Source of the DNA: Desulfuromonadaceae bacterium
GTDB taxonomy: Bacteria; Desulfobacterota; Desulfuromonadia; Geobacterales; Pseudopelobacteraceae
Assembly (NCBI GenBank): GCA_028681335.1
Contig: JAQUIT010000007.1
Span: 950-64,949 of the forward strand
Reading direction: 5' to 3'
DNA length: 64,000 nt
A program made the translations under genes and the position numbers. This document shows, piece after piece, positions 9,565 to 33,381 of this stretch (positions are counted from its first letter, which is position 1; every line of letters starts with the position of its first letter). The notes beneath the pieces are model-generated. The model saw only the letters and a list, made by a program, of their open reading frames with translations, was not told where the DNA came from and did no database searches.

Positions 9565-9580
9565 GCAATATGGTCTAAGA

Positions 9581-10073: not shown

Positions 10074-10085
10074 GTGATTTCCCTG

Positions 10086-11435: not shown

Positions 11436-11657
11436 GTAAAACCTGTTTATTCAATGTGGACAACTGTTGATATGTTTTTAGTCTGTTCATAAGTAAGAGA
11501 AACACGATTACATATGCACAGGTAAAAAGAGTCGTTATACGTAACAAATTGTGCATGTTATGCGTTTATCCCCTGTTTCCACAGGACCAACAATGTACTA
11601 CAAGGTTTTTAAATATATTATAAACATACTACTACGTAAGTAGAACAAGGGGCATCT
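11436..11657. other. dnaA-dnaN spacer with weaker DnaA-box-like sites (alternative or second origin segment)
   Basis: TGTGGACAA at 11455-11463 (1 mismatch to TGTGGATAA), TGTTGATAT at 11465-11473, and GTTTCCACA near 11575-11583 (2 mismatches). AT-rich tail before dnaN. Confidence 0.3.
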
Positions 11658-18973: not shown

Positions 18974-19012
18974 AAATCGGGACGCGACCAATCAGGTGCG
19001 TCCCGATTTTTA
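18974..19012. terminator. Intrinsic terminator between convergent gyrA and the PagL-like gene
   Basis: AAATCGGGACGC (18974-18985) pairs with GCGTCCCGATTT (18997-19008) around an 11-nt loop, followed by TTTAT. The A-tract on the left makes it potentially bidirectional. Confidence 0.8.
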
Positions 19013-19037: not shown

Positions 19038-19628
19038 TTAGTAGTAAAATGAGACCCCAAACAGTATCTTGCTGGAGTTGATCGGTTCATTTGGCGAGGC
19101 TGTACCGGCATTTGAGATGTGATGATATCGGTATTCCATACTCAGGGTGGTCTTCTTGTGTATGAAATACTGAAGACCTGTGCCTCCCTGGTAGCTGTAG
19201 CACAGCCTTGTTCCCATCGTTGGCAGTCCAAGGTCGACATACAACGGACCGCCGCCGGCCAGCACATAAGGTACATATTTGTCCAGACTGGTGAATCTCC
19301 AGTGACCAATCACATACACGCCCACCATGGAGCGTCCGCCATAATTGATGGCCAGGTGATAGGGAAGTTCCACTACAATCTCATGTCGGCCTTGATACCA
19401 ACTTCCTTTACCGATCTCACCCGATACAAAAAAACCGGCCCGAGGGATCAAATCCAATGTTTGAATCTCATGGCGGGTGTCACCAAAGCCGATATGTGAG
19501 ATGCCGTAACCGGCAAGGAAGCCGTATTCACCGGTCGCAGTGGAAGCCGTGTTATCGGCTGAGGCCGGCAACGGCAGAGAAAGAATGATGAGCAGTATAA
19601 AAAAAAGAGATTTTTTTCTATGATTCAT
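19038..19628 (-). CDS. Outer-membrane acyloxyacyl hydrolase / lipid A 3-O-deacylase (PagL-like beta-barrel)
   Basis: 196 aa. Signal peptide MNHRKKSLFFILLIILSLPLPASA, alternating beta-strand pattern, aromatic C-terminus FGVSFYY and a PagL-type catalytic His/Ser motif YRYHHISNAG. Confidence 0.6.
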   Translation of the reverse strand: MNHRKKSLFFILLIILSLPLPASADNTASTATGEYGFLAGYGISHIGFGDTRHEIQTLDLIPRAGFFVSGEIGKGSWYQGRHEIVVELPYHLAINYGGRSMVGVYVIGHWRFTSLDKYVPYVLAGGGPLYVDLGLPTMGTRLCYSYQGGTGLQYFIHKKTTLSMEYRYHHISNAGTASPNEPINSSKILFGVSFYY

Positions 19629-19969
19629 TACGTGACTCCTGTGGAATGAATATCGTGCTAAGGTCTTTCAGCCATCCGGGCAAATTGCTGCCGTAACGGT
19701 GAAGGAGAAGGTTTTTCACTTATAGGCTCCGCGATAAAGGGAATAACCGGTTTCATGTATCTTCAGAGGTCGGGTGAATATCTATAGCACAGAGTTGTCG
19801 TAAAAGCTGGTTCGTTGTCATTAATAAATCTCATTACACCCGTCATATATGGCGGATATGTTGTGCGTGACGGGTGCCGCTGCTGGTTTGCACGTTGACA
19901 CACACCCTGCAAATTCATTTTTATTCGTACAATCATAGCGTTGCACTCATGCAAGTTTCTGGTATTCTC

Positions 19970-19985
19970 TGGCACGGTACTTGAA
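19970..19985 (+). promoter_or_regulatory. Sigma-54-like -24/-12 element upstream of the lipid cluster
   Basis: TGGCACGGTACTTGAA compared with consensus TGGCACG-N4-TTGCW. The -24 half is perfect and the -12 reads TTGA instead of TTGC. It lies about 160 nt upstream of ATG 20146 in a 517-bp non-coding gap. Confidence 0.3.
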
Positions 19986-20145
19986 GTTATTACGTCAGTA
20001 AAATTTGGCAGGACTACCGACAGATAGTTCCGCAGACAACGCAGATGCAAAACCGGACTGTGGAACCCTGTCATTAGCAGCCAGTTGAAGAATACTCTTC
20101 ACACTATTTTAGACCGGGTTGTTCGGGCCGGTAAAGGGAATCGGA

Positions 20146-21570
20146 ATGCCAGAAGAATCATCAAAACGCGCACCGCTTTCGCACCTCCACCCCCCGCAAC
20201 AGGCTCGTCCGAAACTCCTTCTTATTTACCCTGCAACCCACAAACTTGGCTGGGCAAAATATTTTCAGCTTCCTTCCCTCTCTCTCCAGCAGGTTGCCGC
20301 AGTGACGCCTCCGCAGTGGGAGGTGACTCTCGTGGATGAAAGCCAGGAATTGATTCCCTACGGCAGCCACTTTGATGTCGTCGGAATAACCGCCATGACC
20401 CACCAGGCGACACGTGCCTACGAAATTGCCGACCAGTTCAGGAGAGAGGGTGTCACGGTCATCATGGGGGGAATGCACCCGACGGTTATGCCTGAAGAAG
20501 CGCTCACCCACGCAGATGCAGTCGTTATAGGCGAAGCTGAGCCGGTCATGGCCAGGCTCCTCGACAATTTTTTCAGCGGCAGCCTGGAAAAGATCTACCG
20601 GGCACCGATTCCGCAGGACGATACACTTGTTGTGCCCTGGCCACGCCGCGAGATTTTGGCCGGCAAACGATATCTGACCACCCAGACTATTCAGGCCAGC
20701 CGCGGTTGCCCGTACGATTGCTCTTTTTGTACCGTTACGCACTATTTCGGGAATCGCTTCCGCTATCGCGACCCTGCCGACATCCTCGCCGAGATCCGCT
20801 CTTTTCCCCGGAAACTGGTGATTTTTCTGGACGACAATCTTCTGGGGGACCCTGCGATAGCGCGGCCGGTTCTTGAGGGGATGGCGGAGATGGGTATACG
20901 CTGGGGCTCTCAGACAAGTCTGCGTTTTGCCGAAGACCGGGAGCTGCTCAAGCTCGTCGCCCGTTCCGGCTGCATCGGCTTATTCGTCGGAATTGAGTCG
21001 GTAACGGGTCCGTACTCACTGCTCGCTAAATCAGCGGGGCAGACGTCTCAGGCCGAACTTATGAAGCGGGTCAGTGATGCCGGTATTATCCTTGAAACGT
21101 CTCTTATCTTCGGCTTTGACGACCACGATCAAAGCATTTTCGAACGGACTCTCCGTTTTGTTGAGAAGTGTTCTGTGAGTGTTCCAACCTTCAACCTGTT
21201 GACCCCGTATCCGGGAACGAAGCTTTTTCACCAGTATGAACAGGAGGGGCGCCTTTTGCACAGCGACTGGAACCGTTACAACCACTCGGAGGTTGTTTTC
21301 CAGCCGAAGCTGATGTCGCCTGAACAGCTCTACCGGGGGTGGCTGGAGGCTCGTAAGGAGGCGTATACCTGGCCTGCCGTCCTGTCCCGTGTCTGGAGAA
21401 ATCCGGGCCGCCGCATCACAAACCTGGCTTACAACATACTCCGCAAAGGGCCCAACGACCGTCTTAAGGCCGCAGATATGGATGAATGCTCTTTTCAGCA
21501 ACCAGTTCAGGAGTCACTCTATGAAGCCGACGGTACAAAATGCAGCCAGGAGTCGCACCATGCGCGATAG
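20146..21570 (+). CDS. Class B (cobalamin-binding domain) radical SAM enzyme with DUF4070-like C-terminus
   Basis: N-terminal B12-binding-like Rossmann region (LLLIYPAT..., VVGITAMTHQATRAYEIADQFRREGVTVIMGGMHPT), a radical SAM cluster ASRGCPYDCSFC, and a C-terminal tail. The ORF opens at 20119. ATG 20146 has AGGGA upstream. Confidence 0.85.
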   Translation: MPEESSKRAPLSHLHPPQQARPKLLLIYPATHKLGWAKYFQLPSLSLQQVAAVTPPQWEVTLVDESQELIPYGSHFDVVGITAMTHQATRAYEIADQFRREGVTVIMGGMHPTVMPEEALTHADAVVIGEAEPVMARLLDNFFSGSLEKIYRAPIPQDDTLVVPWPRREILAGKRYLTTQTIQASRGCPYDCSFCTVTHYFGNRFRYRDPADILAEIRSFPRKLVIFLDDNLLGDPAIARPVLEGMAEMGIRWGSQTSLRFAEDRELLKLVARSGCIGLFVGIESVTGPYSLLAKSAGQTSQAELMKRVSDAGIILETSLIFGFDDHDQSIFERTLRFVEKCSVSVPTFNLLTPYPGTKLFHQYEQEGRLLHSDWNRYNHSEVVFQPKLMSPEQLYRGWLEARKEAYTWPAVLSRVWRNPGRRITNLAYNILRKGPNDRLKAADMDECSFQQPVQESLYEADGTKCSQESHHAR

Positions 21571-22300
21571 CAGCGCCATCAACCGCGACTTCTATGATGT
21601 TCTCTGGTCAGAGTCTCACCTGAAACAGCCCGATCGTTTCAATACCTGGCCTCTGATTTCCGGTTTATTAGCGCTTGCCCCTGCACGCCTGGAGATAGGC
21701 CCCGGTCTGCGCCCGCGGCTGCCAATATGCGGCACCAGTTTCATAGACATCAGCCCACCGGTTATCGAATGTCTGGAGAAGTGCGGCGGCATCGCGGTCA
21801 CCGGTGAAATAGGTGCTCTCCCGTTCATCACCGGGAAATTCGAACTTGTCTGCGCGTTTGATGTCATTGAGCATGCCGAGGATGACCGGCGGGTTTTTGG
21901 TGAGGTAAGCCGCGTGCTCAAGGAGGGAGGCCATTTTGTCTTTTCCGTCCCGCTGCATACAAAATTCTGGACAAAATTTGACGAATTCGTGGGCCATGTG
22001 CGCAGGTATGATCCTGCTGATTTGCTGTTGCTGATTGCTGCCCACGATCTGGTTCTCGAAAAAAGTGCCATCTACGGCATGCAACCGGCAAACCCACGCT
22101 TGTTGGACCTCGGCATCTGGTGGCTCAAACATCACCGGCGGGAAGCGATGTGGTGCTATAATAAGGTGCTGATGCCGCTGGGGATGCTCATTCAAAAGCG
22201 ATTGAAATTCGTCGATGGACTGGTAGATACGGCCGGTGTCGATGAAATTGTTCTCGTGTGCCGCAAGCGGACCGGGACTTCACAGGGACAGGTACATTGA
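21521..22300 (+). CDS. Class I SAM-dependent methyltransferase
   Basis: Motif I-like LEIGPGLRPRL and FDVIEHAEDDRRVFGEVSRVLKEGGHFVFSVP (Methyltransf_11-like). The ORF opens at 21389 inside the upstream gene. ATG 21521 has AGGAG 7 nt upstream; ATG 21560 is an alternative. Confidence 0.75.
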   Translation: MKPTVQNAARSRTMRDSSAINRDFYDVLWSESHLKQPDRFNTWPLISGLLALAPARLEIGPGLRPRLPICGTSFIDISPPVIECLEKCGGIAVTGEIGALPFITGKFELVCAFDVIEHAEDDRRVFGEVSRVLKEGGHFVFSVPLHTKFWTKFDEFVGHVRRYDPADLLLLIAAHDLVLEKSAIYGMQPANPRLLDLGIWWLKHHRREAMWCYNKVLMPLGMLIQKRLKFVDGLVDTAGVDEIVLVCRKRTGTSQGQVH

Positions 22301-22366
22301 CTTGAAATCGCTTGTAATGTAATGATTATCAGTTTTTTACCGCACTTCCCGGGGTTTACTTAACAG

Positions 22367-23206
22367 ATGCACAATGTTTTAACTGTTGATGTCGAGGATT
22401 GGTACCATGTCTGCGAGCCGGGTAAGGCAGCACCCGTTCCACCGCGTGAATCATGGCGGATTCGTCGTAACCTGGAGAGGATTTTGGCACTGCTTTCCGG
22501 CCATGGTCAGAAGGGCACGTTTTTCATGCTCGGTTCCGTGGCGGAAAACGATCCTGATTTGGCACCTATGATCTGTTCGGCGGGGCATGAAATTGCCTCA
22601 CACGGCTATTCGCACCGTCTGGTCTCTGATTTGACACCAGAGCAGTTTCGGCATGAACTGCAGCTCACCGCACGGATACTGGTGGAGCAGACCGGGCAGC
22701 AACCGATCGGCTACCGGGCGCCGCAATGGTCTCTGTCTGAACAGGTCGGCTGGCCCTTTGCGATCCTGCGGGAAGAAGGGTATCGCTACGACTCAAGCCT
22801 CAATCCTCTTCCCTTTGTGGGTAATTCCCGCGGCAGCCGCACTCCCTATCCACTTGAGGGTGAAGGGGCAGGTCTGTGGGAGATCCCGCCGATGGTGACC
22901 CGGTCCTGGATCGGCAATTTGCCCACCGGTGGCGGGTGGGGCTTCAGGTTATTCCCTTTCAGGGCCATTTGTTCGACTATCGATGGGCTGAATCGGTCCC
23001 GTCAGCCGGCTGTTCTGTATCTCCACCCCCGGGAGGTGGACCCTGCCGGCCCCCGGCTTGACCTTCACGTCCTGAAACGGTTCGTATCCTATGGAACCAG
23101 AACGGATGCGTCCATCCGATTGGGTGGGTTGTTACAGCGGTATCAATTTACCACTATCAAGGAGTTACTAACACGTGGCAGCATGTATCCTGATTCCTGC
23201 ATATAA
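22367..23206 (+). CDS. CE4 polysaccharide deacetylase with DUF3473-type C-terminus
   Basis: N-terminus LTVDVEDWYHV, metal-binding HGYSHR and a YRAPQWS motif. This pattern is typical of deacetylases found in exopolysaccharide and lipid loci. Confidence 0.8.
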   Translation: MHNVLTVDVEDWYHVCEPGKAAPVPPRESWRIRRNLERILALLSGHGQKGTFFMLGSVAENDPDLAPMICSAGHEIASHGYSHRLVSDLTPEQFRHELQLTARILVEQTGQQPIGYRAPQWSLSEQVGWPFAILREEGYRYDSSLNPLPFVGNSRGSRTPYPLEGEGAGLWEIPPMVTRSWIGNLPTGGGWGFRLFPFRAICSTIDGLNRSRQPAVLYLHPREVDPAGPRLDLHVLKRFVSYGTRTDASIRLGGLLQRYQFTTIKELLTRGSMYPDSCI

Positions 23207-23837
23207 CGCTGCAAAAACCATTCTGCCGGTGGTACGGGAGAGTCTGGAACATGGCTTGTCGGTCGTACTGGTGGATGACGGTTCAACAGACAGTACGTCG
23301 ACTTTGGTGGCCGGACTGCCGGTGACGCTGCTGCGGCACCAGCAAAACCGTGGTAAGGGGGCTGCGCTGAAAACCGGGTTTGCCTGGGCGGTCAAGTCCG
23401 GATTTGATGCCGTCGTCACCATCGATGCCGATGGCCAACATGATGTTGCAGCCATCCCGAGGTTGATCTCATCGGCACAAAACGGTGCGTGGGGGATACT
23501 GATTGCGTCGCGTCACACCCAGTTTGAACAGATGGCCGGACTCCGTAAATTCTGGAATCGAATCGGTGTCTGGTGCATCTGGAAACGCACCGGTTTTGAG
23601 ATCACCGACAGTCAGTCCGGCTTCAGGTACTATTCGGGTGACGTCGTGGAAAAATTATCACTGGAGTCAAACGGATACGCACTTGAGATGGAAATCCTGC
23701 TTAAGGCCTGGAAGAACGGTTTTACGATTGGTTCCCTCCCGATTGCCGCACGGGTTGCCGATGGGCGCGCAACCAGCCACTACCGGCCCATAAGCGATAC
23801 CTTTACTATCAGCATGACATTCTTACGTAATATGTGA
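23175..23837 (+). CDS. Family 2 glycosyltransferase (short, soluble, DPM1/ArnC-like catalytic domain)
   Basis: 220 aa. ILIPAYNAAKTI, VLVDDGSTDST and TIDADGQHD (DXD). GTG start overlapping the upstream gene by 32 nt. Confidence 0.8.
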   Translation: MAACILIPAYNAAKTILPVVRESLEHGLSVVLVDDGSTDSTSTLVAGLPVTLLRHQQNRGKGAALKTGFAWAVKSGFDAVVTIDADGQHDVAAIPRLISSAQNGAWGILIASRHTQFEQMAGLRKFWNRIGVWCIWKRTGFEITDSQSGFRYYSGDVVEKLSLESNGYALEMEILLKAWKNGFTIGSLPIAARVADGRATSHYRPISDTFTISMTFLRNM

Positions 23838-23852
23838 CGAGGAACTTTTCAT

Positions 23853-25229
23853 ATGATCAACACCCTGAAAAACTATACAAAAGAGAAGGTCCTTTCCTAC
23901 CTCCTGGAACTGGCGATAAATTCATCGGATGAGACCCTGATCCGCATGACCCATCTGATGGAGATGATTCCCAAGAAAGACTACTACAAGGAACGCATCC
24001 GCTGGATTCGCGGCCTGGTGCGGGATAAGCATCCGAGTATCGAATTTCCGCGCCGGATTTTGCGTGATCTGCACCCCAATCAGCGCGACAAATGGATCAG
24101 CAATCTGTTGGTCAATCACCTGCTGAACGGCACCAACAAACGCAAGGAGTGGAGCGACACCCACGGCTATTATCCTCCTTCAACGGTGGTCATCAGCCCT
24201 ACCATGCGCTGCAACCTGAACTGCTATGGCTGTTACGCCGGCGACTACAACAAGTCGCTGGAGCTTTCTCTGGATGAGGTTGATTCCATCCTGCTCCAGA
24301 TGAAGGAGATGGGTGTCTACTTTGCGGTAATATCCGGCGGTGAGCCGTTTTATATGGAAGGTATCTTCGAGATATTCAAAAAGCATAGCGACATGGCCTT
24401 CCTGGTCTTTACCCACGGGGGCCTGATCGATGAGAAGATGGTTGAGAAGCTGACCGAGGTCGGCAACGTCATGCCGTCATTTTCGCTTGAAGGGTATGAA
24501 CAGGAAACCGACGAACGCCGCGGCGCGGGACATTTCAAAAAAGTCATGCACGCCATGGACCTGCTGCGGGAGGGGGGGCTCTCCTTCTGCGGTTCATTTA
24601 CCCATTCGCGCAAAAACTCCGATATTATCACCAATGGCGACTATATCGACATGCTCCTGAAGAAGGGTGTTTTTGCCATGTGGCTCTTTTCCTATGTACC
24701 GGTTGGCCGTAAGCCCGAGCCGGAGCTGATGCCGACCCCCGAACAGCGCGATGGCCTGCGCCGTACCGTTATCGACTACCGTGCCACCAAGCCGATGCTG
24801 TTCATCGATTTCTGGAACGACGGGCCGATGATCTCCGGCTGTCTGGCCGGCGGGCGCAAGTATTTCCATATCAACGCCAACGGCGATATCGAGCCGTGTG
24901 TCTTCTGTCATTTTGCCGTTGATAATATTCGCCGGACAACCATTCATGAGGCACTGGCATCGCCGTTTTTCACCAAAATCCGCCAAAAACAGGGTGAACA
25001 TGACAACCTGCTCCGTCCCTGTATGCTGATCGATCAACCTGCAGCCGGACGCGAGTTGTTCGCCTCGGAGGGTGCCTATCCGACCCATGACGGGGCGGAT
25101 GAAATTTTCACCGGGCTGGCGGACAGCATGGATGAATACTCCCGTGCCTATGGTGAGATTGCCGATCCGGTCTGGGAAAACGAGTTCAAAACTCTTCAGC
25201 CGAAGACGAAAAAAAGGGGCGGCAACTGA
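23853..25229 (+). CDS. Radical SAM enzyme with SPASM/twitch-like C-terminal Cys cluster and a roughly 110-aa N-terminal extension
   Basis: 458 aa. Radical SAM cluster ISPTMRCNLNCYGCYAG and an auxiliary-cluster-like ISGCLAGGRKYFHINANGDIEPCVFCHF. No precursor-peptide ORF is visible nearby. Confidence 0.8.
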   Translation: MINTLKNYTKEKVLSYLLELAINSSDETLIRMTHLMEMIPKKDYYKERIRWIRGLVRDKHPSIEFPRRILRDLHPNQRDKWISNLLVNHLLNGTNKRKEWSDTHGYYPPSTVVISPTMRCNLNCYGCYAGDYNKSLELSLDEVDSILLQMKEMGVYFAVISGGEPFYMEGIFEIFKKHSDMAFLVFTHGGLIDEKMVEKLTEVGNVMPSFSLEGYEQETDERRGAGHFKKVMHAMDLLREGGLSFCGSFTHSRKNSDIITNGDYIDMLLKKGVFAMWLFSYVPVGRKPEPELMPTPEQRDGLRRTVIDYRATKPMLFIDFWNDGPMISGCLAGGRKYFHINANGDIEPCVFCHFAVDNIRRTTIHEALASPFFTKIRQKQGEHDNLLRPCMLIDQPAAGRELFASEGAYPTHDGADEIFTGLADSMDEYSRAYGEIADPVWENEFKTLQPKTKKRGGN

Positions 25230-26584
25230 TGGATGTACTGCTGGTAAACCCCCCATCATCCAGCGTATTTAACACATTCGGCCTGAGTCTCCCATCCATC
25301 GGCCTGCTCTATGTCGCCGCCACCCTTGAACAGGCTGGCCACAGCGTGGTCGTACGGGATCTGGCCGCAGATGACGGACATCTGGATGACGCCGATATCC
25401 GCCAGGCTGACGTGGTCGGGATTTCGGCTGATACGACAAGGTCGGCCAAGGCGCTCGCCATTGCCCGCAGGGTCTCTGTGCTCGGCCGGCCGGTGGTGAT
25501 GGGCGGTCCGCATCCCCAATTCATGGCGGCTGATATTTTTGCTTCAGGATTTGTTGACTATATTGTCAGGGGAGAGGGGGAATTCATTTTTCCCAACCTG
25601 CTGGCCGCTCTTCAAAACCGGGATAGTGTCGCCTCGGTAAAAGGGTTGATCATCAAGGATGGGGGCCACCTGATTGAAACCGCTGCCGCCGATCCGATTG
25701 ACGTTGAAACCCTCCCTTTTCCCGCCCGGCACCTGGTGGATCTGCATCAGTACCGGGCCAGTATGGACGGCCGTCCCATCACTCCCATTGTTACCAGCCG
25801 CGGTTGCCCCGGTGCCTGTCATTTCTGCTCATCTTCAAGTTTTTTCGGCAGGGGATGGCGCTTCCGGAGTGCCGAATCGGTGCTGGCGGAGCTGGATGAG
25901 ATTTATACCCGCTATGGTTTTCGGGCCGTCTGCTTCATGGATGACAACTTCACCCTTGCGCCGCCGCGGGTCGAACAGATTGCCGCCGGCATCATCGAGC
26001 GCGGCTATGACCTGAAATGGTGGAATTTTTCACGGGTCGATACCATCGTGAAGAATCCGGCCATGGTCACCCGAATGGCGGCGGCCGGTTCCAAAACGGT
26101 CTATCTCGGCATCGAAAGCGGCAACGAGGATACGCTGAACTCCCTCGGGAAGAACACCAACGCACGTGATGTTACCAGGGCCGTGGAAATCCTGCGGCAA
26201 AACGGGATCGAATCCTATGGCAGCTACATCATCGGCAACCTGAACGAGACCGCCGCAGATGTTGAAAGTACGATTGATCTGGCGGTAAGGCTTAATACCA
26301 ACATTGCCCAGTTTACCATCCTGACCCCCTATCCCGGCACTCAGCTCTATGAGGAGATCAAGGACCGCATCTTCTGCCGGCGCTGGAAGTTTTACGATGG
26401 CTTGCACCTTGTTTTCCGCCATCCACTGATAAACCGTCATTACATGCAGTTTCTGCTGGTAAAGGCTTTTATGAAATTTTATCGACGTTCGCACGAGGCC
26501 ACCCGGGGTTTCAAGCAGGCTGCCGGCCGGGGCAAGCTAACCTCCCGAAAGCTGGCGCTCTGTGCGTGGGATCTCTTTTTTTAA
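25229..26584 (+). CDS. Second class B (cobalamin-binding domain) radical SAM enzyme
   Basis: 451 aa. B12-domain-like N-terminus (VLLVNPP..., VVGISADTTRSAKALAIARRVSVLGRPVVMGGPHP) and a radical SAM TSRGCPGACHFC. The start overlaps the upstream stop (TGATG). Confidence 0.85.
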   Translation: MDVLLVNPPSSSVFNTFGLSLPSIGLLYVAATLEQAGHSVVVRDLAADDGHLDDADIRQADVVGISADTTRSAKALAIARRVSVLGRPVVMGGPHPQFMAADIFASGFVDYIVRGEGEFIFPNLLAALQNRDSVASVKGLIIKDGGHLIETAAADPIDVETLPFPARHLVDLHQYRASMDGRPITPIVTSRGCPGACHFCSSSSFFGRGWRFRSAESVLAELDEIYTRYGFRAVCFMDDNFTLAPPRVEQIAAGIIERGYDLKWWNFSRVDTIVKNPAMVTRMAAAGSKTVYLGIESGNEDTLNSLGKNTNARDVTRAVEILRQNGIESYGSYIIGNLNETAADVESTIDLAVRLNTNIAQFTILTPYPGTQLYEEIKDRIFCRRWKFYDGLHLVFRHPLINRHYMQFLLVKAFMKFYRRSHEATRGFKQAAGRGKLTSRKLALCAWDLFF

Positions 26585-26640
26585 CCATGAAAGCGGGATG
26601 TTATCCTTACAACGATCATGCCGATACCGAGTGATATAAA

Positions 26641-27558
26641 GTGACCTTTTACAGCAATTTCAATCTGTTCCTTATCAAACTGTTCACCATTCTGGTGCCG
26701 CGGTGGCTGTTTCCGCCGTTCACTTTTTTCTGGGGGGGGCTGTTTTACCTGCTGCTGACGGAGACCCGGAGGGGTGTGCGTTCCAATCTGCAGGTGGTCA
26801 CCGGCAGGAATAATGTGGAACGGCTGGTGTTTTCAACCTTCCGCACGTTCAGCCATAACTGGTGTGATGAGATGCTGTTTATGCGGCTCAAGGGGGAAAA
26901 ACTCCAGGCGCTGATCGGGCGGCGCTGCAGCAGCGACTCACTCGATCGGGCGCTGGCAGCCGGCAACGGCGCGATCCTTGTCTCGCCCCATCTCGGCAGC
27001 TGGGAACTGGGCGGCTTGGCGCTGGCGGATTTAGGCTATACGGTCAACGTGTTGACGTTCCGCGAGCCGGATGAAAAGGTGAACGAGCTGCGTGAAGCGG
27101 TCAGACGGGAGCGTGGTGTCCGTTTCATCTATGTTGACCGGGACGATTCCTCGCCGTTTGCCATAATCGAGGCGGTTCACGCACTGAGGCGTAACGAGGT
27201 GCTGGCGATACTCGGTGACCGGGATGGCTCCTCCCACACCATTCTGATCGATTTTTTCGGTCGGCCGACCAACATCCCGGTGGGGGCAGCCTATCTGTCG
27301 CTGGCCAGCAGTGCGCCGGTAATCCCGGTTTTCGTGCTGCTGGAGGATAAAGGGCGCTATGCGACCGTCATGGAAGAGCCGATCTTTTTCACCAGCGGTC
27401 ACGGGGAGCATGAGAGTGCCATCCGCTCCGGCATGGAGAAGCTGCTGGCGGTGTTTGAGAGATATATACGGGCGTACCCTGATCAGTGGTACAATTTGTA
27501 TGATTTTTTCGGAAGAGGCATTGAACCGGACAAATCAAAAGGGCAGATAAACAGGTAA
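26641..27558 (+). CDS. LpxL/HtrB-family lysophospholipid / lipid A acyltransferase
   Basis: 305 aa. N-terminal TM, catalytic HX4E box VSPHLGSWELGG and a C-terminal YPDQWYNL motif typical of the Lip_A_acyltrans family. Confidence 0.8.
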   Translation: MTFYSNFNLFLIKLFTILVPRWLFPPFTFFWGGLFYLLLTETRRGVRSNLQVVTGRNNVERLVFSTFRTFSHNWCDEMLFMRLKGEKLQALIGRRCSSDSLDRALAAGNGAILVSPHLGSWELGGLALADLGYTVNVLTFREPDEKVNELREAVRRERGVRFIYVDRDDSSPFAIIEAVHALRRNEVLAILGDRDGSSHTILIDFFGRPTNIPVGAAYLSLASSAPVIPVFVLLEDKGRYATVMEEPIFFTSGHGEHESAIRSGMEKLLAVFERYIRAYPDQWYNLYDFFGRGIEPDKSKGQINR

Positions 27559-27607
27559 CGGCCGTTTGACGATAGTTAATAATGCGGACCAGAGAGAGGA
27601 ATAGTTC

Positions 27608-27865
27608 ATGAGCGATGAGTTGATTGAAAAGGTTAAACAGATGATTATTGACAGCCTGCGTATCGAGGGGATGGCGACCGATGAAATCGATGCTGACGCC
27701 CCGCTGTTCGGCGAAGGGCTGGGGCTTGACTCCATTGATGCGCTGCAGCTCGTTGTGGCCATGGAGAAGGAATTCGGCGTAGTCGTCCCTGACGCCGCCA
27801 CCGGTTCAACAGTTTTTGCCTCGGTGCGGAGCATGGCCGGGTATATCGGGGAACACCGGAAATGA
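27608..27865 (+). CDS. Acyl carrier protein (cluster-dedicated)
   Basis: 85 aa. Phosphopantetheine site GLGLDSIDALQLVVAMEKEFG. Confidence 0.9.
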   Translation: MSDELIEKVKQMIIDSLRIEGMATDEIDADAPLFGEGLGLDSIDALQLVVAMEKEFGVVVPDAATGSTVFASVRSMAGYIGEHRK

Positions 27866-27905
27866 AGGGACTCCTGATCTCCTCCGGGCGCAAGGGGAGA
27901 GGTGC

Positions 27906-28733
27906 ATGATCTGCTGGATGTACCCCGGACAGCCGGTAGCTTTTACCGATACCTACAATAACGATCCCGAATTTCAGAAGATCGCTCTGCTCTGCCAGGG
28001 TGCGACCGGCTTCAATCCGCTGGAAAGCGACACGTCAGCCCCAAGCCTCACCCGGAGTGTGCGTCTCCAGCTGCACGGGGTCTCTGTCAGCCTGTATCGT
28101 TCCGGGCTGCTGATGAGCCAGGGAGCAGGGCCGGATCTGATTGCCGGGCACAGCATGGGGATCTATGCCGCACTGGCGGCCTCCGGATCGATAGACAGCG
28201 GGACGGCCCTTGCATTGACATGCCGTCTCGGTGTCGCCATGGCAGGAATGGGGGAGTATGCGCTCGGATGTGTCATCGGCCTGACCTCCGGACCGCTGGT
28301 GGCAATAGCGGCCAACAACGGCGTATATATTGCCAATCACAACACCTCGCGCCATTTCCTGCTGGCAGGCGGACGGAAAGAGGTGGCTGCGGCACTGGCT
28401 GAAGCCACGGTTTCCGGCGCCTTTTCGGTGAACCTTTTCCCCTGTGACGCCCCGCTGCACACGCCGCTGATAGAAGCGATCGCCGGAGATCTGCGGCGGA
28501 TTGTGGCGGAGTACCGCTTTTCCGAACCACGGATACCGCTCGTAGAACACATCGGGCAGACGACCCTGGCAGCCGCCACCATTCCGGCGTTTCTGGTGGA
28601 TGAGCTCTGCCGCCCGGTGTATTGGGAAACAACCTACCGCACGCTTCGTTCCCGAGGGGTGACGCGTTTTCAAGAGGTGGGAGCCGGCTCTGTGCTTACC
28701 AAATTCAACCGCTGGATCGATAGCGATACATGA
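27906..28733 (+). CDS. FabD-like acyltransferase (malonyl-CoA:ACP transacylase family)
   Basis: Nucleophile elbow AGHSMGIYAALAASG. The ORF opens at 27816 but ATG 27906 has GGAGAGG upstream. About 275 aa, shorter than housekeeping FabD. Confidence 0.7.
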   Translation: MICWMYPGQPVAFTDTYNNDPEFQKIALLCQGATGFNPLESDTSAPSLTRSVRLQLHGVSVSLYRSGLLMSQGAGPDLIAGHSMGIYAALAASGSIDSGTALALTCRLGVAMAGMGEYALGCVIGLTSGPLVAIAANNGVYIANHNTSRHFLLAGGRKEVAAALAEATVSGAFSVNLFPCDAPLHTPLIEAIAGDLRRIVAEYRFSEPRIPLVEHIGQTTLAAATIPAFLVDELCRPVYWETTYRTLRSRGVTRFQEVGAGSVLTKFNRWIDSDT

Positions 28734-29152
28734 AAAATCACGAAATCTCCATAACAGTCCGTTTCAACGAAATCGATGCCTACCGGGTGGCGTGGCACGG
28801 CCATTATGTTGCCTGGATGGAGGTCGGCCGCAATGCTCTGGCGGGCCAGTTCGGTCTCGATGCCCTCCAGCTGATTGCCGACGGTTTTTTGGGGCCGGTC
28901 GTCGCTCTTGAGTTGAAGTATCTGCGTCCGGCCCGATTTAACGAGGTACTGACGGTCCAGACCACCATGCGGCGCACCGCCACCGCCACACTGGAATTTA
29001 TCACCACTATTATCGGCCCGGACGGTACAAAATGTGCCACGGGCGTGACTACCCACGCAGTGACCGATTTGAATGGCGTGCTCCAGTTCCGGATGCCGCA
29101 GGTGATCGCCGAGCGGGTAATCCGCCTGCTGGAGTGGCTTGAGGTGCCGTGA
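28730..29152 (+). CDS. 4HBT hotdog thioesterase
   Basis: 140 aa. ITVRFNEIDAYRVAWHGHYVAWMEVGRNAL (YbgC-like Asp). 4-nt overlap with the upstream gene. Confidence 0.8.
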   Translation: MKNHEISITVRFNEIDAYRVAWHGHYVAWMEVGRNALAGQFGLDALQLIADGFLGPVVALELKYLRPARFNEVLTVQTTMRRTATATLEFITTIIGPDGTKCATGVTTHAVTDLNGVLQFRMPQVIAERVIRLLEWLEVP

Positions 29153-29390
29153 CGCTGCCGGCCATCTTCTGGCCGTGCTCGACCTCTGTTTTGAATCAGA
29201 TACCCTGCAGGCGGTTTCCTCCACTCTTGCGGAAGAGTAACCCGGTGCCGCTCTCCTCTCCCTGTGCAACATGATCCAGGGCAGACATCATCGGTCGCTC
29301 TGTTGACCGCTCCAGCAAGTGCCACTTGCTGGACATTTTACGGTGTGACCAGTATAGTGGGAGAACTGTTTATAAGGGCTTGGGGTGGGT

Positions 29391-30131
29391 ATGGAGTTTA
29401 AGGATTCAATCATTATTGTTACCGGCGGGACGAGGGGCATCGGCAGGGCCGTCTCCCTGGCTTTTGCCCGTGAAGGCGCCACCGTATTCGCCGCCTATCT
29501 GAGTAATGACGGAGCGGCCCGGACGGCGACCGAAGAGGCCGTCGGCCTGCCGGGGACAGTTACGCCGTTCAAGTGTGACGTGTCGACCTCAGAAGGGGCA
29601 TCCAGTCTGATTAACGCCGCTGCGGCGGCATCCGGGCACATTGATGTACTGGTGAACAACGCCGGGATCATCAGGGACTGCTACCTGGCCATGATGTCGG
29701 AGGAGGATTGGGACGCGGTCATCCGCTCAAATATCAATCCGCTTTTTCACTGCTGCAAGTGGGGCCTGCGCAAGATGATGGGGCGCCGCAGCGGCAGTAT
29801 TGTCAACATCTCTTCAATCTCCGGGGTGATCGGCACCCAGGGACAGACCAACTATGCCGCCTCCAAAGGGGCTGCGATCAGCTTCACAAAATCGTTGGCT
29901 CGCGAGGCCGGACCGATGGGGATACGTGTCAACGCGGTTGTCGCGGGGATGATTGCGACGGAGATGACCGCTGGTCTGAAACAGGATGTGGTGGAACAGG
30001 TTGTCCGCAGGTCGTCCCTCGGGAGGATCGGTACCCCTGAGGAGGTTGCAGCCGCAGTCCTGTTTCTCGCGTCGGAGCGGGCTTCGTATATTACCGGCCA
30101 ATCAATCATTGTTGACGGTGGTATCGTGTGA
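29391..30131 (+). CDS. 3-oxoacyl-ACP reductase (FabG-like SDR)
   Basis: TGGTRGIGRA cofactor motif, NNAG and the catalytic YAASKGA. ATG 29391 is 2 codons into the listed ORF. Confidence 0.88.
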   Translation: MEFKDSIIIVTGGTRGIGRAVSLAFAREGATVFAAYLSNDGAARTATEEAVGLPGTVTPFKCDVSTSEGASSLINAAAAASGHIDVLVNNAGIIRDCYLAMMSEEDWDAVIRSNINPLFHCCKWGLRKMMGRRSGSIVNISSISGVIGTQGQTNYAASKGAAISFTKSLAREAGPMGIRVNAVVAGMIATEMTAGLKQDVVEQVVRRSSLGRIGTPEEVAAAVLFLASERASYITGQSIIVDGGIV

Positions 30132-31333
30132 ACAGAAAACGTGTCGTCATCACCGGTTTGGGGGTCTTCTGCAGCGTCGGGAAGAACGTCGTGGAATTTA
30201 CCGATGCGCTCTGCACAGGCAGATGCGGCATTGGGCCGGTGGACCTGTTTGACGTTTCTCCCTTTCCGGCCAAAATAGGTGCGCAGATCAAGGGGTATGA
30301 CCCGCTCGATTACTTCGATTCACGTTCATCCCGCAAACTGTCCCGTTCCGATCAGTTCGGTGTCATTGCCGCCGGCCAGGCGCTCCGGGACAGTGGCGCT
30401 GTTGACTGTTACTCCCCCTATGACAGGGGGGTCTCCATGGGTGCGGGCGCTGCCGGCATGTTCCAGGGAGAGACCTGGCTCAAAGCCCTGCTCGAGGGGA
30501 GGGAGGAGCGTCCATCGCTGCTGCGCGGCATCCTGCCGGATCAGACCTCGACGGATATCGCCCGTACCTACAATCTCTGCGGCTACCAGGGGACGGTGAC
30601 GACCGCCTGTTCCTCCTCCGCAACCGCCATCGGGTGGGCGGCAGATCTGGTGGCGTGCGGTCGTCAGAAGCTTATGGTGGCAGGCGGAGCGGATACGCTC
30701 TCGATGCTTACGTTTGCAGGGTTCAATTCACTGCGGGTGGTCGACTCCCAGCCCTGTGCCCCTTTCAGCCTCGGCCGTCAGGGCATTTCCCTCGGTGAGG
30801 GGGCTGCTTTTGTTGTGCTGGAGCGTGAGGAGGATGCCCTCGCCCGCGGCGCCCGGGTGTACGGTGCCGTGCTCGGCTATGCCCTGGCGGGCGAAGCGTA
30901 CCACATGACGGCGCCCGAACCGGGTGGTACGGCGGCGGCGGGTGTCATGCTCCAGGCCCTTGAGCGGTCGGCTGTTGATGCGTCGCAGGTCGGCTGGGTT
31001 AACGCCCATGGTACCGGTACGCCGCTCAACGACGTGGTTGAGTCGAATGCGATGAAACTGGTCTTTGGTGAGCGCGCTCCCCATGTGCCCCTCATTTCCA
31101 CCAAAGGGATGACCGGACACTGCCTGGGTGCTGCAGGAGCTATCGAGGCCGTCGCAACCGTGATCGCACTCAATAGGAAAATTATCCCCCGGACGCTCAA
31201 TTTCCGTGGCCGTGACCCTGAATGTGACCTGGAGTATTGTCATGGCGGCAGCGTGCCGACCGATAGTACCATCGCCATGTCCAACTCCTTTGCCTTCGGC
31301 GGGAATATTACCTCTCTGGTGCTGTCACTATGA
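30128..31333 (+). CDS. Beta-ketoacyl-ACP synthase (KAS II-like, catalytically complete)
   Basis: 401 aa. Cys in TTACSSSATAIG, His in NAHGTGTPLND and His in STKGMTGHCLGAAG. Confidence 0.9.
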   Translation: MNRKRVVITGLGVFCSVGKNVVEFTDALCTGRCGIGPVDLFDVSPFPAKIGAQIKGYDPLDYFDSRSSRKLSRSDQFGVIAAGQALRDSGAVDCYSPYDRGVSMGAGAAGMFQGETWLKALLEGREERPSLLRGILPDQTSTDIARTYNLCGYQGTVTTACSSSATAIGWAADLVACGRQKLMVAGGADTLSMLTFAGFNSLRVVDSQPCAPFSLGRQGISLGEGAAFVVLEREEDALARGARVYGAVLGYALAGEAYHMTAPEPGGTAAAGVMLQALERSAVDASQVGWVNAHGTGTPLNDVVESNAMKLVFGERAPHVPLISTKGMTGHCLGAAGAIEAVATVIALNRKIIPRTLNFRGRDPECDLEYCHGGSVPTDSTIAMSNSFAFGGNITSLVLSL

Positions 31334-32373
31334 ATACTCCGATCTCAGGAATTGTCGTTACCGGTTACTCCGCTGTATCCGCTGCCGGAATTGGGATAGC
31401 CGCCATTCAGGAGCTTCTGTGCAGTGGACGTGATGCGCTTGCGCCCATTCCCGGCGATCTGATTGGCAGGGATGGCTTGCGCTGGGGGAAAGTGAACGGG
31501 TTCAAGGCGTCCGATTTTATGCCGCCCATGAAGGCCCGCAAGATGGATCGTTGCAGCCAGTTTGCGGTTGCGGTCGCCGGTCTGGCCTTGAAAGAGGCCG
31601 GTATCGACCTGAAAGAGCTCCCTCCGGAACGGGTCGGAATTGCGCTCGGCAGCGGTTTTTGCGGTGTCTCCAATTCCGCCGAATTTCTGACCGGGTACTT
31701 CACCGGTGGCGTTGAGGGGTTGATCCCGATGATTTTTCCCAACACCGTCCCCAATTCCCCTGCCAGTAATGCCTCCATCGAGCACGGCTTCAAGGGGCCC
31801 AACGTTACTCTGATCCAGCGCTTCTGCTCGGCAGAATCCGCGTTCATGATGGCATGCCGTTTTATCGAAGAGGGACGTGCCGATATCATGCTGACCGGAG
31901 GAGCGGATGAGCTCATACCGCTCATCGTCAAGGGTTTGGATACCATGGGGCAGATGAAGCCCGCTTCCGCACCATTCGGAGAAGGGTGCGGCATGGTCGT
32001 CCTGGAGAGTGCGGCCCATGCCGCACGGCGCGGTGCATCGGTAAAAGCATCGGTAGAAGCCATCACAACCATCGGTATGCTTGCTTCCGGACATGAAGGT
32101 GAAGCTCTCGACCTGCTTGCCGGTTCACCTGATTCCGGGTGCCACGTCTCGCTCTCCGGGACGGCAGCTGATATGCCGGGACTACTGGAGCGGGTTTCCC
32201 CCGGCTCCGCGATCGATATCGGGCGTACGGTCGGCCGTTCTCTGGCCATGGGCGGCACCGCCATGGCGGCACTGCTTGCCTCGCTCCAGCATGGCCAGGC
32301 AGGCCTGCACCTGGCTGCCTCACCCGAAGGTCCGTACTATGCCATCCGCTTCAGAGGAGGAGCCCCTGTTTAA
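31330..32373 (+). CDS. KS-like partner subunit (chain-length-factor-like; lacks the His-His dyad)
   Basis: 347 aa with thiolase-fold similarity to the upstream KS (LTGGADE). A Cys is retained in QRFCSAESAF, but no HGTGT or GH motifs are present and the C-terminal half is short and divergent. 4-nt overlap with the KS gene. Confidence 0.7.
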   Translation: MNTPISGIVVTGYSAVSAAGIGIAAIQELLCSGRDALAPIPGDLIGRDGLRWGKVNGFKASDFMPPMKARKMDRCSQFAVAVAGLALKEAGIDLKELPPERVGIALGSGFCGVSNSAEFLTGYFTGGVEGLIPMIFPNTVPNSPASNASIEHGFKGPNVTLIQRFCSAESAFMMACRFIEEGRADIMLTGGADELIPLIVKGLDTMGQMKPASAPFGEGCGMVVLESAAHAARRGASVKASVEAITTIGMLASGHEGEALDLLAGSPDSGCHVSLSGTAADMPGLLERVSPGSAIDIGRTVGRSLAMGGTAMAALLASLQHGQAGLHLAASPEGPYYAIRFRGGAPV

Positions 32374-32749
32374 TCCCGACCCTGCACATTATCTGCCGCA
32401 CCGCTACCCCTTTCTGTTCCTTGACCGGATTCTTGAGCTGGAACAGGGGGTACGGGGAGTTGCCCGGAAAGGTGTGGGAGCTACCCGCGGTTTCCCTCAG
32501 ATCCTCATGATCGAATGCGTTGCCCAGTTGGCCGGTATTGTTGTTGCGCAGGAAGAGGGGGAGGGAGGCTTTATGGCTTCGATTGATCACGCCGAATTTT
32601 CCGCCCCGCCGGATGCGGGGGAGATACTGACCGTTTCAGCAAGGGTGATAAAATCATTCGGGCGGTTGTTCATGATAGAAGGGACTGTTTCCAGCGGCGC
32701 GGATCAGCTCCTCTCCGTGCAACTGACCCTGGGAGTGGGAAAACTGTGA
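32339..32749 (+). CDS. FabZ/FabA-like 3-hydroxyacyl-ACP dehydratase
   Basis: Hallmark LPHRYPFLFLDRI plus a hotdog core (IECVAQLAG). The listed ORF (32081) starts inside the upstream gene. ATG 32339 gives 136 aa. Confidence 0.85.
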   Translation: MPSASEEEPLFNPDPAHYLPHRYPFLFLDRILELEQGVRGVARKGVGATRGFPQILMIECVAQLAGIVVAQEEGEGGFMASIDHAEFSAPPDAGEILTVSARVIKSFGRLFMIEGTVSSGADQLLSVQLTLGVGKL

Positions 32750-33381
32750 AGTGTATGAATCAGGCACGGCTGTTGCCAACTATATTCGTTTTGTTGCTGG
32801 TGATGCTCCTGCTGGACAGCACCATCTGCACCGCACGTACCATTTCTCCTCTTGAAGGGCTGGAGGCTTTTCGCCGCGGCTTTGCCGGCATTACTGATTT
32901 CACCGCCGATATCACCCAGGAAAAACGGCTCTCCCTGATGAAACGGGCCATGGTGATGAACGGCTCGCTTCGCTTTAAAAAGCCCGATCTGTTTTTTATG
33001 GAGATAAACCCTCCCTTCAGCAGCCGTATGCTGCTGCGGGATACCGTCATTGAACAGGTCGCCGGCAGAGACAAAAGCCCCACCAGGATTGCACTTCCGC
33101 CGGAACAGGGGCTGAAACAGTGGTTTTCCAAACTGGCTGCACCGGTCACGTCGTTGCCGGACGGGGTTCAAGTGCGGGCCGACCTGACCAACTCCGTCTA
33201 CACCTTGACAATTTCCCCTGCAGACAAAGGGCAGGTCTCGGATATCTCCATAGTTTTTCTGGAGAACGGCACGGTCAGAAAGCTCGTTATTAACGAGAGG
33301 AACGGTGACCGGGCCACCATGACCCTTAAAAATGTACGCCGCAATGTCGGCCTGACCGAGAAGGATTTCCGGCTGGAATAG
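32746..33381 (+). CDS. LolA-like outer-membrane lipoprotein/lipid carrier protein
   Basis: 211 aa. Signal peptide, then FTADITQEKRLSLMKRAMVMNGSLRFKKPDLFFMEI, the LolA-family pattern. Confidence 0.75.
   Translation: MKCMNQARLLPTIFVLLLVMLLLDSTICTARTISPLEGLEAFRRGFAGITDFTADITQEKRLSLMKRAMVMNGSLRFKKPDLFFMEINPPFSSRMLLRDTVIEQVAGRDKSPTRIALPPEQGLKQWFSKLAAPVTSLPDGVQVRADLTNSVYTLTISPADKGQVSDISIVFLENGTVRKLVINERNGDRATMTLKNVRRNVGLTEKDFRLE

Follow-up and report, generated by a model that had tools for sequence, protein, structure and literature searches.

Gene clusters that combine type II fatty acid synthesis (FASII) with radical S-adenosylmethionine (SAM) enzymes were described by Rattray et al. in 2009, in a comparison of other genomes with the putative ladderane clusters of Kuenenia stuttgartiensis (PMC2649909). 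Besides FASII genes, the Kuenenia clusters contain radical SAM enzymes, including one with a B12 domain, a SAM methyltransferase, a polysaccharide deacetylase and a glycosyltransferase, and similar clusters were reported in Desulfotalea psychrophila, Geobacter species and Pelobacter carbinolicus; Desulfotalea, however, made no ladderanes (PMC2649909). Clusters called 'ladderane' by antiSMASH have since been reported in many non-anammox phyla, their function not being known (PMC9902471), and according to a 2026 review the ladderane pathway itself is still unsolved (PMC13459092). The NCBIfam family TIGR04072 ('lipid biosynthesis B12-binding/radical SAM', rSAM_ladder_B12) was built for the B12 radical SAM enzyme of ladderane-type clusters. 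Here, we analyze three radical SAM genes at positions 20146-26584 of a 64,000-nucleotide stretch of a Desulfuromonadaceae genome (contig JAQUIT010000007.1; the whole stretch is hereafter called the window), which stand at the opening of such a cluster. Two of them encode class B enzymes with a B12-binding domain, B12a (20146-21570) and B12b (25229-26584), and the third, lying between them (23853-25229), encodes an enzyme with a predicted twitch-like C-terminal domain, referred to below as the twitch enzyme.

Two lipid-active radical SAM enzymes serve as further points of reference. Gms, an archaeal synthase of GMGT (glycerol monoalkyl glycerol tetraether) (Garcia et al. 2024, PMC11214058), is AhbD-like (36% identical to AhbD, E = 7e-79), carries two auxiliary clusters and has an N-terminal lipid-pocket domain of ~100 amino acids (aa), the COG4001 extension; its gene often lies beside that of a B12 radical SAM enzyme, and Gmm is its B12 radical SAM methylase (PMC11214058). 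Mss, the bacterial membrane-spanning lipid synthase (Sahonero-Canavesi et al. 2022, PMC13159169), is a radical SAM enzyme of anaerobes that likewise acts on lipids; its authors set membership at >=30% identity and E <= 1e-50 to WP_129545148.1 or Tmari_0825.

The window cluster is of the type known since 2009 and is a non-anammox cousin of the ladderane clusters. It shares with them a dedicated acyl carrier protein (ACP), a FabF-like ketosynthase (KS) pair, a dehydratase and radical SAM enzymes, some with a B12 domain, as well as a methyltransferase, a polysaccharide deacetylase and a glycosyltransferase; the carriers listed in 2009 include Geobacter by name, and related Geobacter loci contain a protein that passes TIGR04072. 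It differs in that the B12 enzymes of the window fail TIGR04072, a gene of that family being present only as a relic, and in that the cluster has no phytoene-desaturase-like gene. What we add to this description is a split between core and accessory radical enzymes, the twitch assignment together with a clade-specific cysteine, a novel N-terminal domain, a pairing of the twitch gene with B12b-type genes beyond the cluster and the TIGR04072 relic; the coupling or cyclization chemistry is offered as a hypothesis. The 2009 description, the twitch-like domain and the variability of the B12 genes against a conserved twitch core were also absent from the first-pass annotation of this DNA. In our view, the best explanation of the trio is that its members are oxygen-independent tailoring enzymes of a type II fatty acid synthase/polyketide synthase-like (glyco)lipid cluster of the aryl-polyene/'ladderane-type' family.

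The three radical SAM open reading frames (ORFs) lie on the plus strand at the positions, and with the cysteine motifs, that had been read in the first-pass annotation. Pfam likewise recovered two B12-domain enzymes with a methyltransferase, a carbohydrate esterase family 4 (CE4) deacetylase and a family 2 glycosyltransferase (GT2) between them; the designation of the central enzyme as SPASM, by contrast, did not stand. This protein (458 aa; RCNLNCYGC and GCLAGG...EPCVFCHF; Pfam Radical_SAM 73 bits, SPASM 31 bits) was aligned with 30 diverse relatives, among which the CX3CX2C motif of the radical SAM core (C120/C124/C127) and the GGE at 162-164 are invariant, and only C330, C349 and C390 are invariant family-wide among the downstream cysteines. 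A fourth, C352, the second cysteine of CVFC, distinguishes a subset: in 79 family members, it is cysteine in 28/31 closer relatives versus 8/48 others. H339 is invariant, and H353 is histidine in 74 of the 79. The CX2CX5CX3C motif of a full SPASM domain, in which seven or eight cysteines are conserved, is absent from the enzyme. Counting cysteines, by which auxiliary clusters were assigned here, gives ligands for one such cluster only; the C-terminal Fe-S domain is therefore predicted to be twitch-like, which fits one auxiliary cluster, rather than a two-cluster SPASM domain.

The AlphaFold model of the twitch enzyme (predicted local distance difference test (pLDDT) 85, predicted template modeling (TM) score 0.86) contains a partial TIM barrel plus a twitch hairpin, and its top ranks in Foldseek are SkfB, SuiB and anSME. 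The SkfB match (phmmer 9.6e-13, profile 2.2e-24, Foldseek 2e-14) spans both the core and the twitch domain. Tes appears only at Foldseek rank 39 (TM 0.39, root-mean-square deviation 16.7), and when the family profile was compared with the Protein Data Bank (PDB) sequences, Tes (7tol, 7.6e-11) was ninth and matched core residues 114-220 only; membership in the Tes/GDGT-MAS family was rejected on these grounds. The solved sequence relatives, SkfB, BlsE and SuiB, are generic. In NCBIfam the enzyme scores 86 bits against AhbD and 84 against NirJ2, the cut-off being 500 in both cases; orthology to AhbD, NirJ, PqqE or HpnH was rejected, all scores being below the curated cut-offs. A link to heme, which the AhbD-type matches and HemL-like neighbors of some relatives had prompted, was dropped because no other hem genes occur in the annotated loci.

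Ahead of the radical SAM core lies an N-terminal extension of ~105 aa, in which the first-pass annotation had recognized no motif. Its length is conserved and its sequence partly conserved across the family, and in the AlphaFold model it consists of five helices across residues 2-104, with no strands. Even at E = 10 it matches no Pfam family, it has no match to PqqD or the RiPP recognition element (RRE; RiPP, ribosomally made peptide that is modified after translation), and when modeled alone (pLDDT 72) it gave no PDB fold match in Foldseek at E <= 0.001. Two of the helices (43-57 and 61-72) have a basic, strongly amphipathic character, from which we infer only that they may suit a membrane or lipid surface.

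The family to which the twitch enzyme belongs is large: the library holds 16,160 cluster representatives at E <= 1e-3, 552 of them at E <= 1e-30, and a scan of one genome per species found at least 597 loci. The best 80 loci, which were taken for taxa, come from Thermodesulfobacteriota, Nitrospirota, Zixibacteria, Actinomycetota, Chloroflexota, Synergistota, Spirochaetota, Bacillota, Planctomycetota, Omnitrophota, Patescibacteria and Bacteroidales. For co-occurrence, all window cluster proteins were searched by tblastn over 81 loci and their fetched flanks, which comprise a closer set of 31 (L001-L030 and L035) and 50 more distant loci. The flanks of the closer set contain GT2 (25/31), CE4 (19/31), the acyltransferase (20/31), ACP (23/31), the thioesterase (22/31) and a B12 radical SAM gene (26/31), whereas GT2, CE4, ACP, thioesterase and KS were found by tblastn in none of the remaining 50; the association of these genes is therefore not due to chance. 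In Geobacterales, the order CE4-GT2-radical SAM-acyltransferase-ACP-(B12)-FabD-thioesterase-(B12)-FabG-KS-chain length factor (CLF)-dehydratase-LolA-LolB-MMPL is kept, and the same gene set is retained in rearranged form in loci titled Syntrophaceae, Syntrophobacteraceae, Desulfatiglandales and Thermodesulfovibrio. In a neighbor-joining tree, the cluster-linked twitch enzymes (Thermodesulfobacteriota plus one Thermodesulfovibrio) form a single clade.

Outside this clade, the gene either stands alone among housekeeping genes or is directly paired with a B12b-type radical SAM gene. Such pairs occur in Zixibacteria (L028, L030), in Planctomycetota (L073) and in the loci L032 and L051, and the B12b-type partners show the same sub-threshold BchE/HpnJ/HpnR profile as B12b itself. 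The neighbors of distant members are housekeeping genes only (IF-3, L20, PheST, ThrS, PriA, HU, MiaB-like), besides a class III aminotransferase in several loci; this HemL-like/acetylornithine-aminotransferase-like gene lies 0.1-5.5 kb from stand-alone twitch members of several phyla, in L037, L042, L044, L048, L052, L080 and L083. One metagenome-assembled genome (MAG) has two twitch copies, one in a full cluster (L003) and the other in L002 (1656-11380), away from the main cluster, together with B12a and the methyltransferase and with no GT2 or CE4. The L002 copy lies next to genes of phospholipid turnover and transport, namely those for an Aas-like AMP-binding/acyltransferase fusion, an MFS (LplT-like) transporter and an MlaA lipoprotein, and to a gene for a 425-aa protein. 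A phage-type integrase is located ~4.5 kb downstream in L002.

The B12 enzymes present a different picture. B12a (474 aa; RGCPYDCSFC) and B12b (451 aa; RGCPGACHFC) both have the class B architecture, with B12-binding matches (PF02310) of 51 and 76 bits (cut-off 32) and Radical_SAM matches (PF04055) of 48 and 80 bits, respectively. None of the three radical SAM enzymes of the window reaches any curated NCBIfam cut-off. For B12a, the scores (bits/cut-off) are 99/481 for BchE, the best family, and 73.4/360 for TIGR04072; for B12b, they are 190/481 for BchE, 138/650 for HpnR, 122/578 for HpnJ, 123/600 for PhpK, 107.5/360 for TIGR04072 and 85/500 for AprD4. Orthology of the B12 enzymes to BchE, HpnR, HpnJ or TIGR04072 was rejected on these scores, which lie far below the cut-offs; orthology to BchE or the hopanoid methylases, which the first-pass annotation had named as an outcome contrary to its view, is thus not what is found. 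The nearest solved relatives are MgmA (9ccb) and AprD4 (6fd2); AprD4 ranks first among the solved matches of B12a and second among those of B12b. AprD4 carries a B12-binding domain yet is not known to use cobalamin. B12a and B12b are class B enzymes by domain content, and cobalamin binding is predicted only.

Gene-order maps and paralogue-specific tblastn resolved five B12 types across the Geobacterales clusters, namely B12a, B12b, an 'after-ACP' type, the TIGR04072 'after-thioesterase' type and an HpnR-like type. Close relatives of the window carry up to four B12 radical SAM genes plus an extra small radical SAM gene, of which the window trio is a subset; the only B12 genes of the window are B12a and B12b. 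B12a (62-82% identity) is found in some Geobacterales clusters only; its pairing with the methyltransferase is seen again in L002 and L029. In L029, which is the closest relative (identity 92% by tblastn and 93% in the genome scan), four B12 genes accompany the small non-B12 gene and a B12b orthologue is lacking. L009 and L012 share B12b with the window. The small gene (~319 aa; L029 4812-5771, L003 7494-8402) lies between methyltransferase and CE4 and is absent from the window; its product has CNLRCDHC plus a C-terminal CX8CX2CXC and weakly resembles AhbC/NirJ. In the G. sulfurreducens-type locus L001, the B12 radical SAM protein encoded after the thioesterase passes TIGR04072 (377.9 versus 360 bits). 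At the same place in the window, within the 230-bp thioesterase-fabG gap, lies a relic (29151-29273, plus strand) that matches residues 30-70 of the L001 protein at 49% identity; since 41 codons with an in-frame stop remain, the TIGR04072-type gene has been deleted in the lineage of the window. The best sigma-70-like match of the region (10/12, 29330-29358) falls just downstream of the relic, within the deletion scar. Across these clusters, the B12 enzymes are swappable accessories and the twitch enzyme is the constant radical SAM core.

The cluster as a whole is a co-directional, operon-like run of ~18 kb on the plus strand, its genes tightly packed or overlapping, with gaps of at most 66 bp within 20146-26584. 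B12a is followed by a class I SAM-dependent methyltransferase (21560-22300; Methyltransf_11), whose start is likely 21560 or 21521, not the first GTG of the ORF at 21389, and which overlaps the B12a stop codon. Next come the CE4 deacetylase with a DUF3473 C-terminal domain (22367-23206; Polysacc_deac_1+DUF3473; TIGR03006 215 bits versus a cut-off of 276), which retains intact metal and catalytic motifs (DVED, 8-11; HGYSH, 79-83), and a short soluble GT2 with a DAD motif (23175-23837; Glycos_transf_2) of the polyprenyl-phosphate glycosyltransferase type (DPMS/ArnC/PpgS-like; 1.4e-11 to DPMS 5mlz and 1.9e-8 to ArnC 9bhc among solved structures). The stop of the twitch gene overlaps the start codon of B12b, after which are encoded an LpxL/PatA-type acyltransferase (26641-27558; Lip_A_acyltrans), the dedicated ACP (27608-27865; serine in LGLDSI; NF006617 71.6 bits, passing the cut-off of 70), a FabD-like acyltransferase (GHSMG; ORF 27816-28733, true start probably near 27906) and a 4HBT-fold thioesterase (28730-29152). 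Beyond the relic follow FabG (29385-30131), KS with an intact Cys-His-His triad (30128-31333), a truncated CLF-like partner (31330-32373), a FabZ-like dehydratase (ORF 32081-32749, likely start ~32339), a LolA-like protein with a signal peptide (32746-33381), a LolB-like lipoprotein (33576-34271) and an MMPL/HpnN-like resistance-nodulation-division transporter (34278-36833). Directly 3' of the MMPL gene, a 551-aa ORF (36886-38541, plus strand), which has no Pfam or NCBIfam match and whose 3' end overlaps the long gpsA ORF (38396-39568), may be a further cluster component. Catalytic motifs are intact in CE4, GT2, the FabD-like protein, ACP and KS. No enoyl reductase is present among the cluster genes, no AMP-binding or lyase domain for aryl starter activation in any ORF of 19038-39568, and no membrane span is predicted in the three radical SAM proteins, GT2, CE4 or the methyltransferase.

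From domain content, synteny, phylogeny, motif integrity and the lack of peptide features, we infer the following chemical steps. The FabD-like protein would load the dedicated ACP, and KS/CLF, FabG and the FabZ-like dehydratase would build a chain that is probably unsaturated or hydroxylated because of the lack of an enoyl reductase. GT2 would place an N-acetyl-hexosamine on a lipid phosphate, CE4 would free the amine, the LpxL-type acyltransferase would join the chain to the sugar, and the LolA-like, LolB-like and MMPL proteins would carry the product to the outer membrane. In the obligatory radical step, the twitch enzyme would abstract hydrogen at an unactivated lipid-chain carbon and then form a C-C (or C-O) bond, with the single auxiliary cluster handling the second electron and the N-terminal helical domain holding the lipid; B12b and B12a, the latter with the class I methyltransferase, would methylate or rearrange the same scaffold. 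That the radical modification takes place on the hydrophobic chain, where the twitch enzyme would form a C-C or C-O bond and the B12 enzymes would methylate or rearrange, is a tentative proposal to which we give slightly less than an even chance. The commitment to the chain is made because the genes for ACP, FabD and thioesterase have other B12 paralogues among them, because the extra twitch copy in L002 adjoins phospholipid genes without GT2 or CE4, and because the architecture and the B12 neighbor parallel Gms/Gmm. The first-pass annotation had considered a tail-coupling or cyclization role conceivable; by analogy, the parallel with the Gms architecture makes such a role somewhat more plausible.

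Several observations weigh against radical chemistry on the chain. Non-anammox members of the ladderane-type clusters, the present one included, are known from genes alone, and the strict CE4-GT2-radical SAM adjacency is equally compatible with a sugar substrate. The characterized lipid C-C couplers Tes and Gms carry two auxiliary clusters, whereas the window enzyme has cysteines for one, and Tes is only a remote match, both in fold and in profile. BchE and HpnJ, among the best sub-threshold matches of B12b, are not methylases. The neighbor-joining tree carries no support values. The wider family is mostly stand-alone among housekeeping genes (Actinomycetota, Bacillota, Chloroflexota, Synergistota); the ancestral substrate is therefore not the product of this cluster.

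The sugar substrate deserves the closest attention among the alternatives. The radical SAM enzymes might act on the deacetylated aminosugar provided by GT2 and CE4, and not on the acyl chain, by ring contraction to an aminocyclitol (as in HpnI/HpnK/HpnJ, or Cds-like), by deoxygenation (AprD4-like) or by anaerobic alcohol oxidation (BtrN/anSME-like). Such head-group remodeling would agree well with the CE4-GT2-radical SAM genes being contiguous or overlapping in every Geobacterales locus, with a GT2 of the polyprenyl-phosphate sugar transferase type beside a CE4 with intact motifs, with the position of AprD4 among the solved matches of both B12 enzymes, and with HpnJ ranking second among the families matched by the B12b-type partners of Zixibacteria (229 bits) and Planctomycetota (183 bits); ring contraction also has precedents in HpnJ and Cds, which act on hopanoid glucosamine and calditol, respectively (PMC13459092). 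The window B12b, however, falls far short of the HpnJ and AprD4 cut-offs, other B12 paralogues lie between the ACP, FabD and thioesterase genes, and family members that stand alone or are paired with a B12 gene have no GT2 or CE4 nearby, as is also the case for the second copy in L002 beside its phospholipid genes. We regard head-group remodeling as unlikely, albeit as a serious candidate.

A second alternative keeps the hydrophobic substrate and detaches it from the cluster: the twitch enzyme might be a cross-linker of the Mss/Gms kind that makes tail-to-tail or bridge C-C bonds in bulk phospholipid, with B12b as a methylase partner like Gmm, and its position in the cluster would then reflect shared regulation, not a shared substrate. 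The family does occur in the anaerobic phyla from which Mss homologues have been reported (Actinomycetota including Humimicrobiia-type MAGs, Chloroflexota, Spirochaetota, Synergistota, Omnitrophota, Patescibacteria, Desulfobacterota and Bacillota), the gene stands alone outside Thermodesulfobacteriota, and the architecture of an AhbD-like core, an N-terminal extension of ~100 aa and a B12 neighbor matches that of Gms. On the other hand, the closeness of Gms to AhbD contrasts with the 86 bits, over the core, of the window enzyme, whose cysteines suffice for one auxiliary cluster, not two, and the cluster-linked copies are a separate clade with a clade-specific cysteine. Moreover, when the family members of the Bacillota Moorella mulderi and Thermosediminibacter oceani were used as seeds, the named Mss carriers (Thermoanaerobacter, Moorella thermoacetica, Fervidicola, Caldanaerobacter and Caldicellulosiruptor) were absent at >=55% identity from the top 120 homologues listed. 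We consider a bulk-phospholipid cross-linker improbable.

Chemistry of the ladderane kind, in which a radical SAM enzyme folds a polyunsaturated chain into fused small rings as proposed for anammox, is very improbable here: the synteny with the Kuenenia and Desulfotalea clusters (PMC2649909), the true TIGR04072 member in related Geobacter loci (378 versus 360 bits) and the KS/CLF pair without an enoyl reductase would be in its favor, but the TIGR04072 gene of the window has been lost, ladderanes were not found in Desulfotalea and are strictly tied to anammox genera, and the cluster lacks a phytoene-desaturase-like gene. The sole amine-oxidase-type gene of the window, at 52080, was rejected for that role, being a protoporphyrinogen oxidase ~15 kb away.

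The first-pass annotation had placed the trio in a lipid rather than a peptide context, with no precursor-peptide ORF in view, and its suggested six-frame search for short conserved peptide ORFs agrees with this: the six-frame list of ORFs of >=20 aa contains no free-standing precursor in 20146-27650, and the only upstream ORF (19763-20074, minus strand; 103 aa, no Pfam match) is conserved in 0/81 related loci. A RiPP pathway, in which the SPASM-type enzyme cross-links a ribosomal peptide that the B12 enzymes also methylate, was accordingly rejected as scarcely credible, since the closeness of the RiPP maturases SkfB and SuiB in structure and the presence of ApyD among the sub-threshold matches of the B12 enzymes are outweighed by the absence of a precursor ORF, by an all-helical N-terminus without the RRE that had been named as a sign of such a pathway, and by neighbors that are all lipid genes, with no protease, leader-peptide transporter or immunity gene among them.

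The window is a chromosomal stretch beside the replication origin, in which the lipid cluster adjoins the dnaA-gyrA region of a Geobacteraceae/Desulfuromonadales-type chromosome. The genes rsmG-mnmG-mnmE-yidC on the minus strand are followed by dnaA (10074), dnaN, recF, gyrB (13876) and gyrA (16327). The GC content is 39-42% at ~8000-12000, in the rnpA/rpmH-dnaA intergenic region, versus 52-60% elsewhere, which is consistent with oriC and would place the cluster within ~10 kb of the origin. The twitch enzyme has its best homologue, 95% identical, in a Desulfuromonadaceae MAG, and proteins of named Geobacter, Pelotalea and Trichlorobacter are 76-87% identical to the enzyme. An Rfam search of the whole window gave no matches, with no riboswitch or other RNA upstream of the cluster; in the 517-bp upstream region (19629-20145), no cobalamin riboswitch was detected in spite of the B12-domain enzymes encoded downstream. 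Promoter and terminator scans of the region yielded matches that were not above the shuffled expectation. The terminator scan was limited to loops of <=8 nt, and a hairpin at 18976-19012 (a 10-bp GC-rich stem and a 12-nt loop, followed by a T-run) therefore lay outside its reach; situated between the convergent gyrA and pagL, it has the appearance of a bidirectional terminator.

A PagL-like lipid A 3-O-deacylase gene (19038-19628, minus strand) is divergent from the cluster. PagL was rejected as a cluster member because it is absent beside the cluster in all related loci, and its adjacency is for the same reason probably fortuitous; it still adds to the lipid A/outer-membrane flavor of the region. 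A fourth radical SAM gene of the window (1654-2733, minus strand; MqnC/CofH-type, Radical_SAM + CofH_C) is probably a futalosine-pathway menaquinone gene unrelated to the cluster. At 40245-49083 (plus strand), a ShlB/FhaC-type two-partner-secretion transporter gene precedes a 2337-aa ORF that has no Pfam match, which is unusual for a TpsA-like passenger.

The problem that this locus touches is how anaerobes functionalize unactivated lipid carbons in 'ladderane-like' clusters. A bolder proposal, which we put forward as speculation and consider rather unlikely to hold in full, is that the twitch enzyme and its relatives (552 clusters at 50% identity, E <= 1e-30, in more than ten anaerobic phyla) might be a previously unrecognized family of bacterial radical SAM enzymes that form C-C bonds in lipids. 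The N-terminal domain would then be a lipid-binding module analogous, not homologous, to COG4001, and the Geobacter sub-clade with four cysteines would have been recruited into a cluster for an outer-membrane lipid, there to cross-link or cyclize a polyketide-like acyl chain, which the B12 enzymes would subsequently methylate or rearrange. If so, one would expect bridged or cyclic lipids of kinds so far undescribed for bacteria, and a family of lipid cross-linkers would bear on the bacterial sources of the bridged/branched tetraether-type biomarkers used in palaeoclimate studies; if the enzymes only decorate the sugar head group, the cluster would be a routine variant of a glycolipid pathway. 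Among targets for study, we would rank the twitch enzyme first, as the constant step, ahead of the swappable B12 enzymes, and the natural loss of the TIGR04072 gene offers a ready comparison. Geobacter, in which a cluster of this kind occurs and genetic work is feasible, could serve as an experimental model.

Beyond the ladderane-type clusters, the gene set can be compared with several known systems. Aryl-polyene/flexirubin (Ape/Flx) sets comprise KS/CLF, a ketoreductase, a dehydratase, a thioesterase, ACP, GT2, an LPLAT-type acyltransferase, LolA/LolB-like proteins and MMPL, and are not known to include an enoyl reductase. The window cluster has all those parts and lacks the enoyl reductase as well; it differs in being without the aryl-starter genes (adenylating enzyme and ammonia lyase) and in adding CE4, the FabD-like protein and, in clusters of its type, three to six radical SAM enzymes. 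Flexirubin-type NCBIfam scores are correspondingly below cut-off (FlxB 220/340, LolA2_flexi 50/125). With HpnI/HpnK/HpnJ, the cluster shares the succession of a GT2, a deacetylase and a B12-domain radical SAM enzyme on lipid-linked glucosamine, and with ArnC/ArnD and PpgS it shares a GT2 whose best solved relatives are DPMS and ArnC, ArnD-type deformylases being CE4 enzymes. HpnK is not known to be a CE4 enzyme. The differences from these pathways are the HpnJ score of B12b given above, GT2 scores of 24/379 for HpnB and 95/370 for PpgS, and the lack of hopanoid genes nearby. SkfB, SuiB and anSME are the best sequence and structure matches of the twitch enzyme, but they modify peptides or proteins, and SkfB and SuiB bear an N-terminal RRE where the window enzyme has a five-helix domain and no accompanying peptide gene.

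The closest parallels in design are with the lipid-active enzymes. By description, the twitch enzyme shares with Gms an AhbD-like core, a C-terminal Fe-S domain, an N-terminal extension of ~100 aa, a B12 radical SAM neighbor and an anaerobic lipid context; it differs from Gms in its low AhbD score, in having cysteines for one auxiliary cluster and in an extension that matches no Pfam family or PDB fold. With Mss, the twitch family shares a very similar phylum-level distribution, 'deltaproteobacteria' included; given the absence of the named carriers noted above, it is unlikely that the twitch enzyme belongs to Mss. The resemblance to both Gms and Mss is one of design, as distinct from demonstrated descent.

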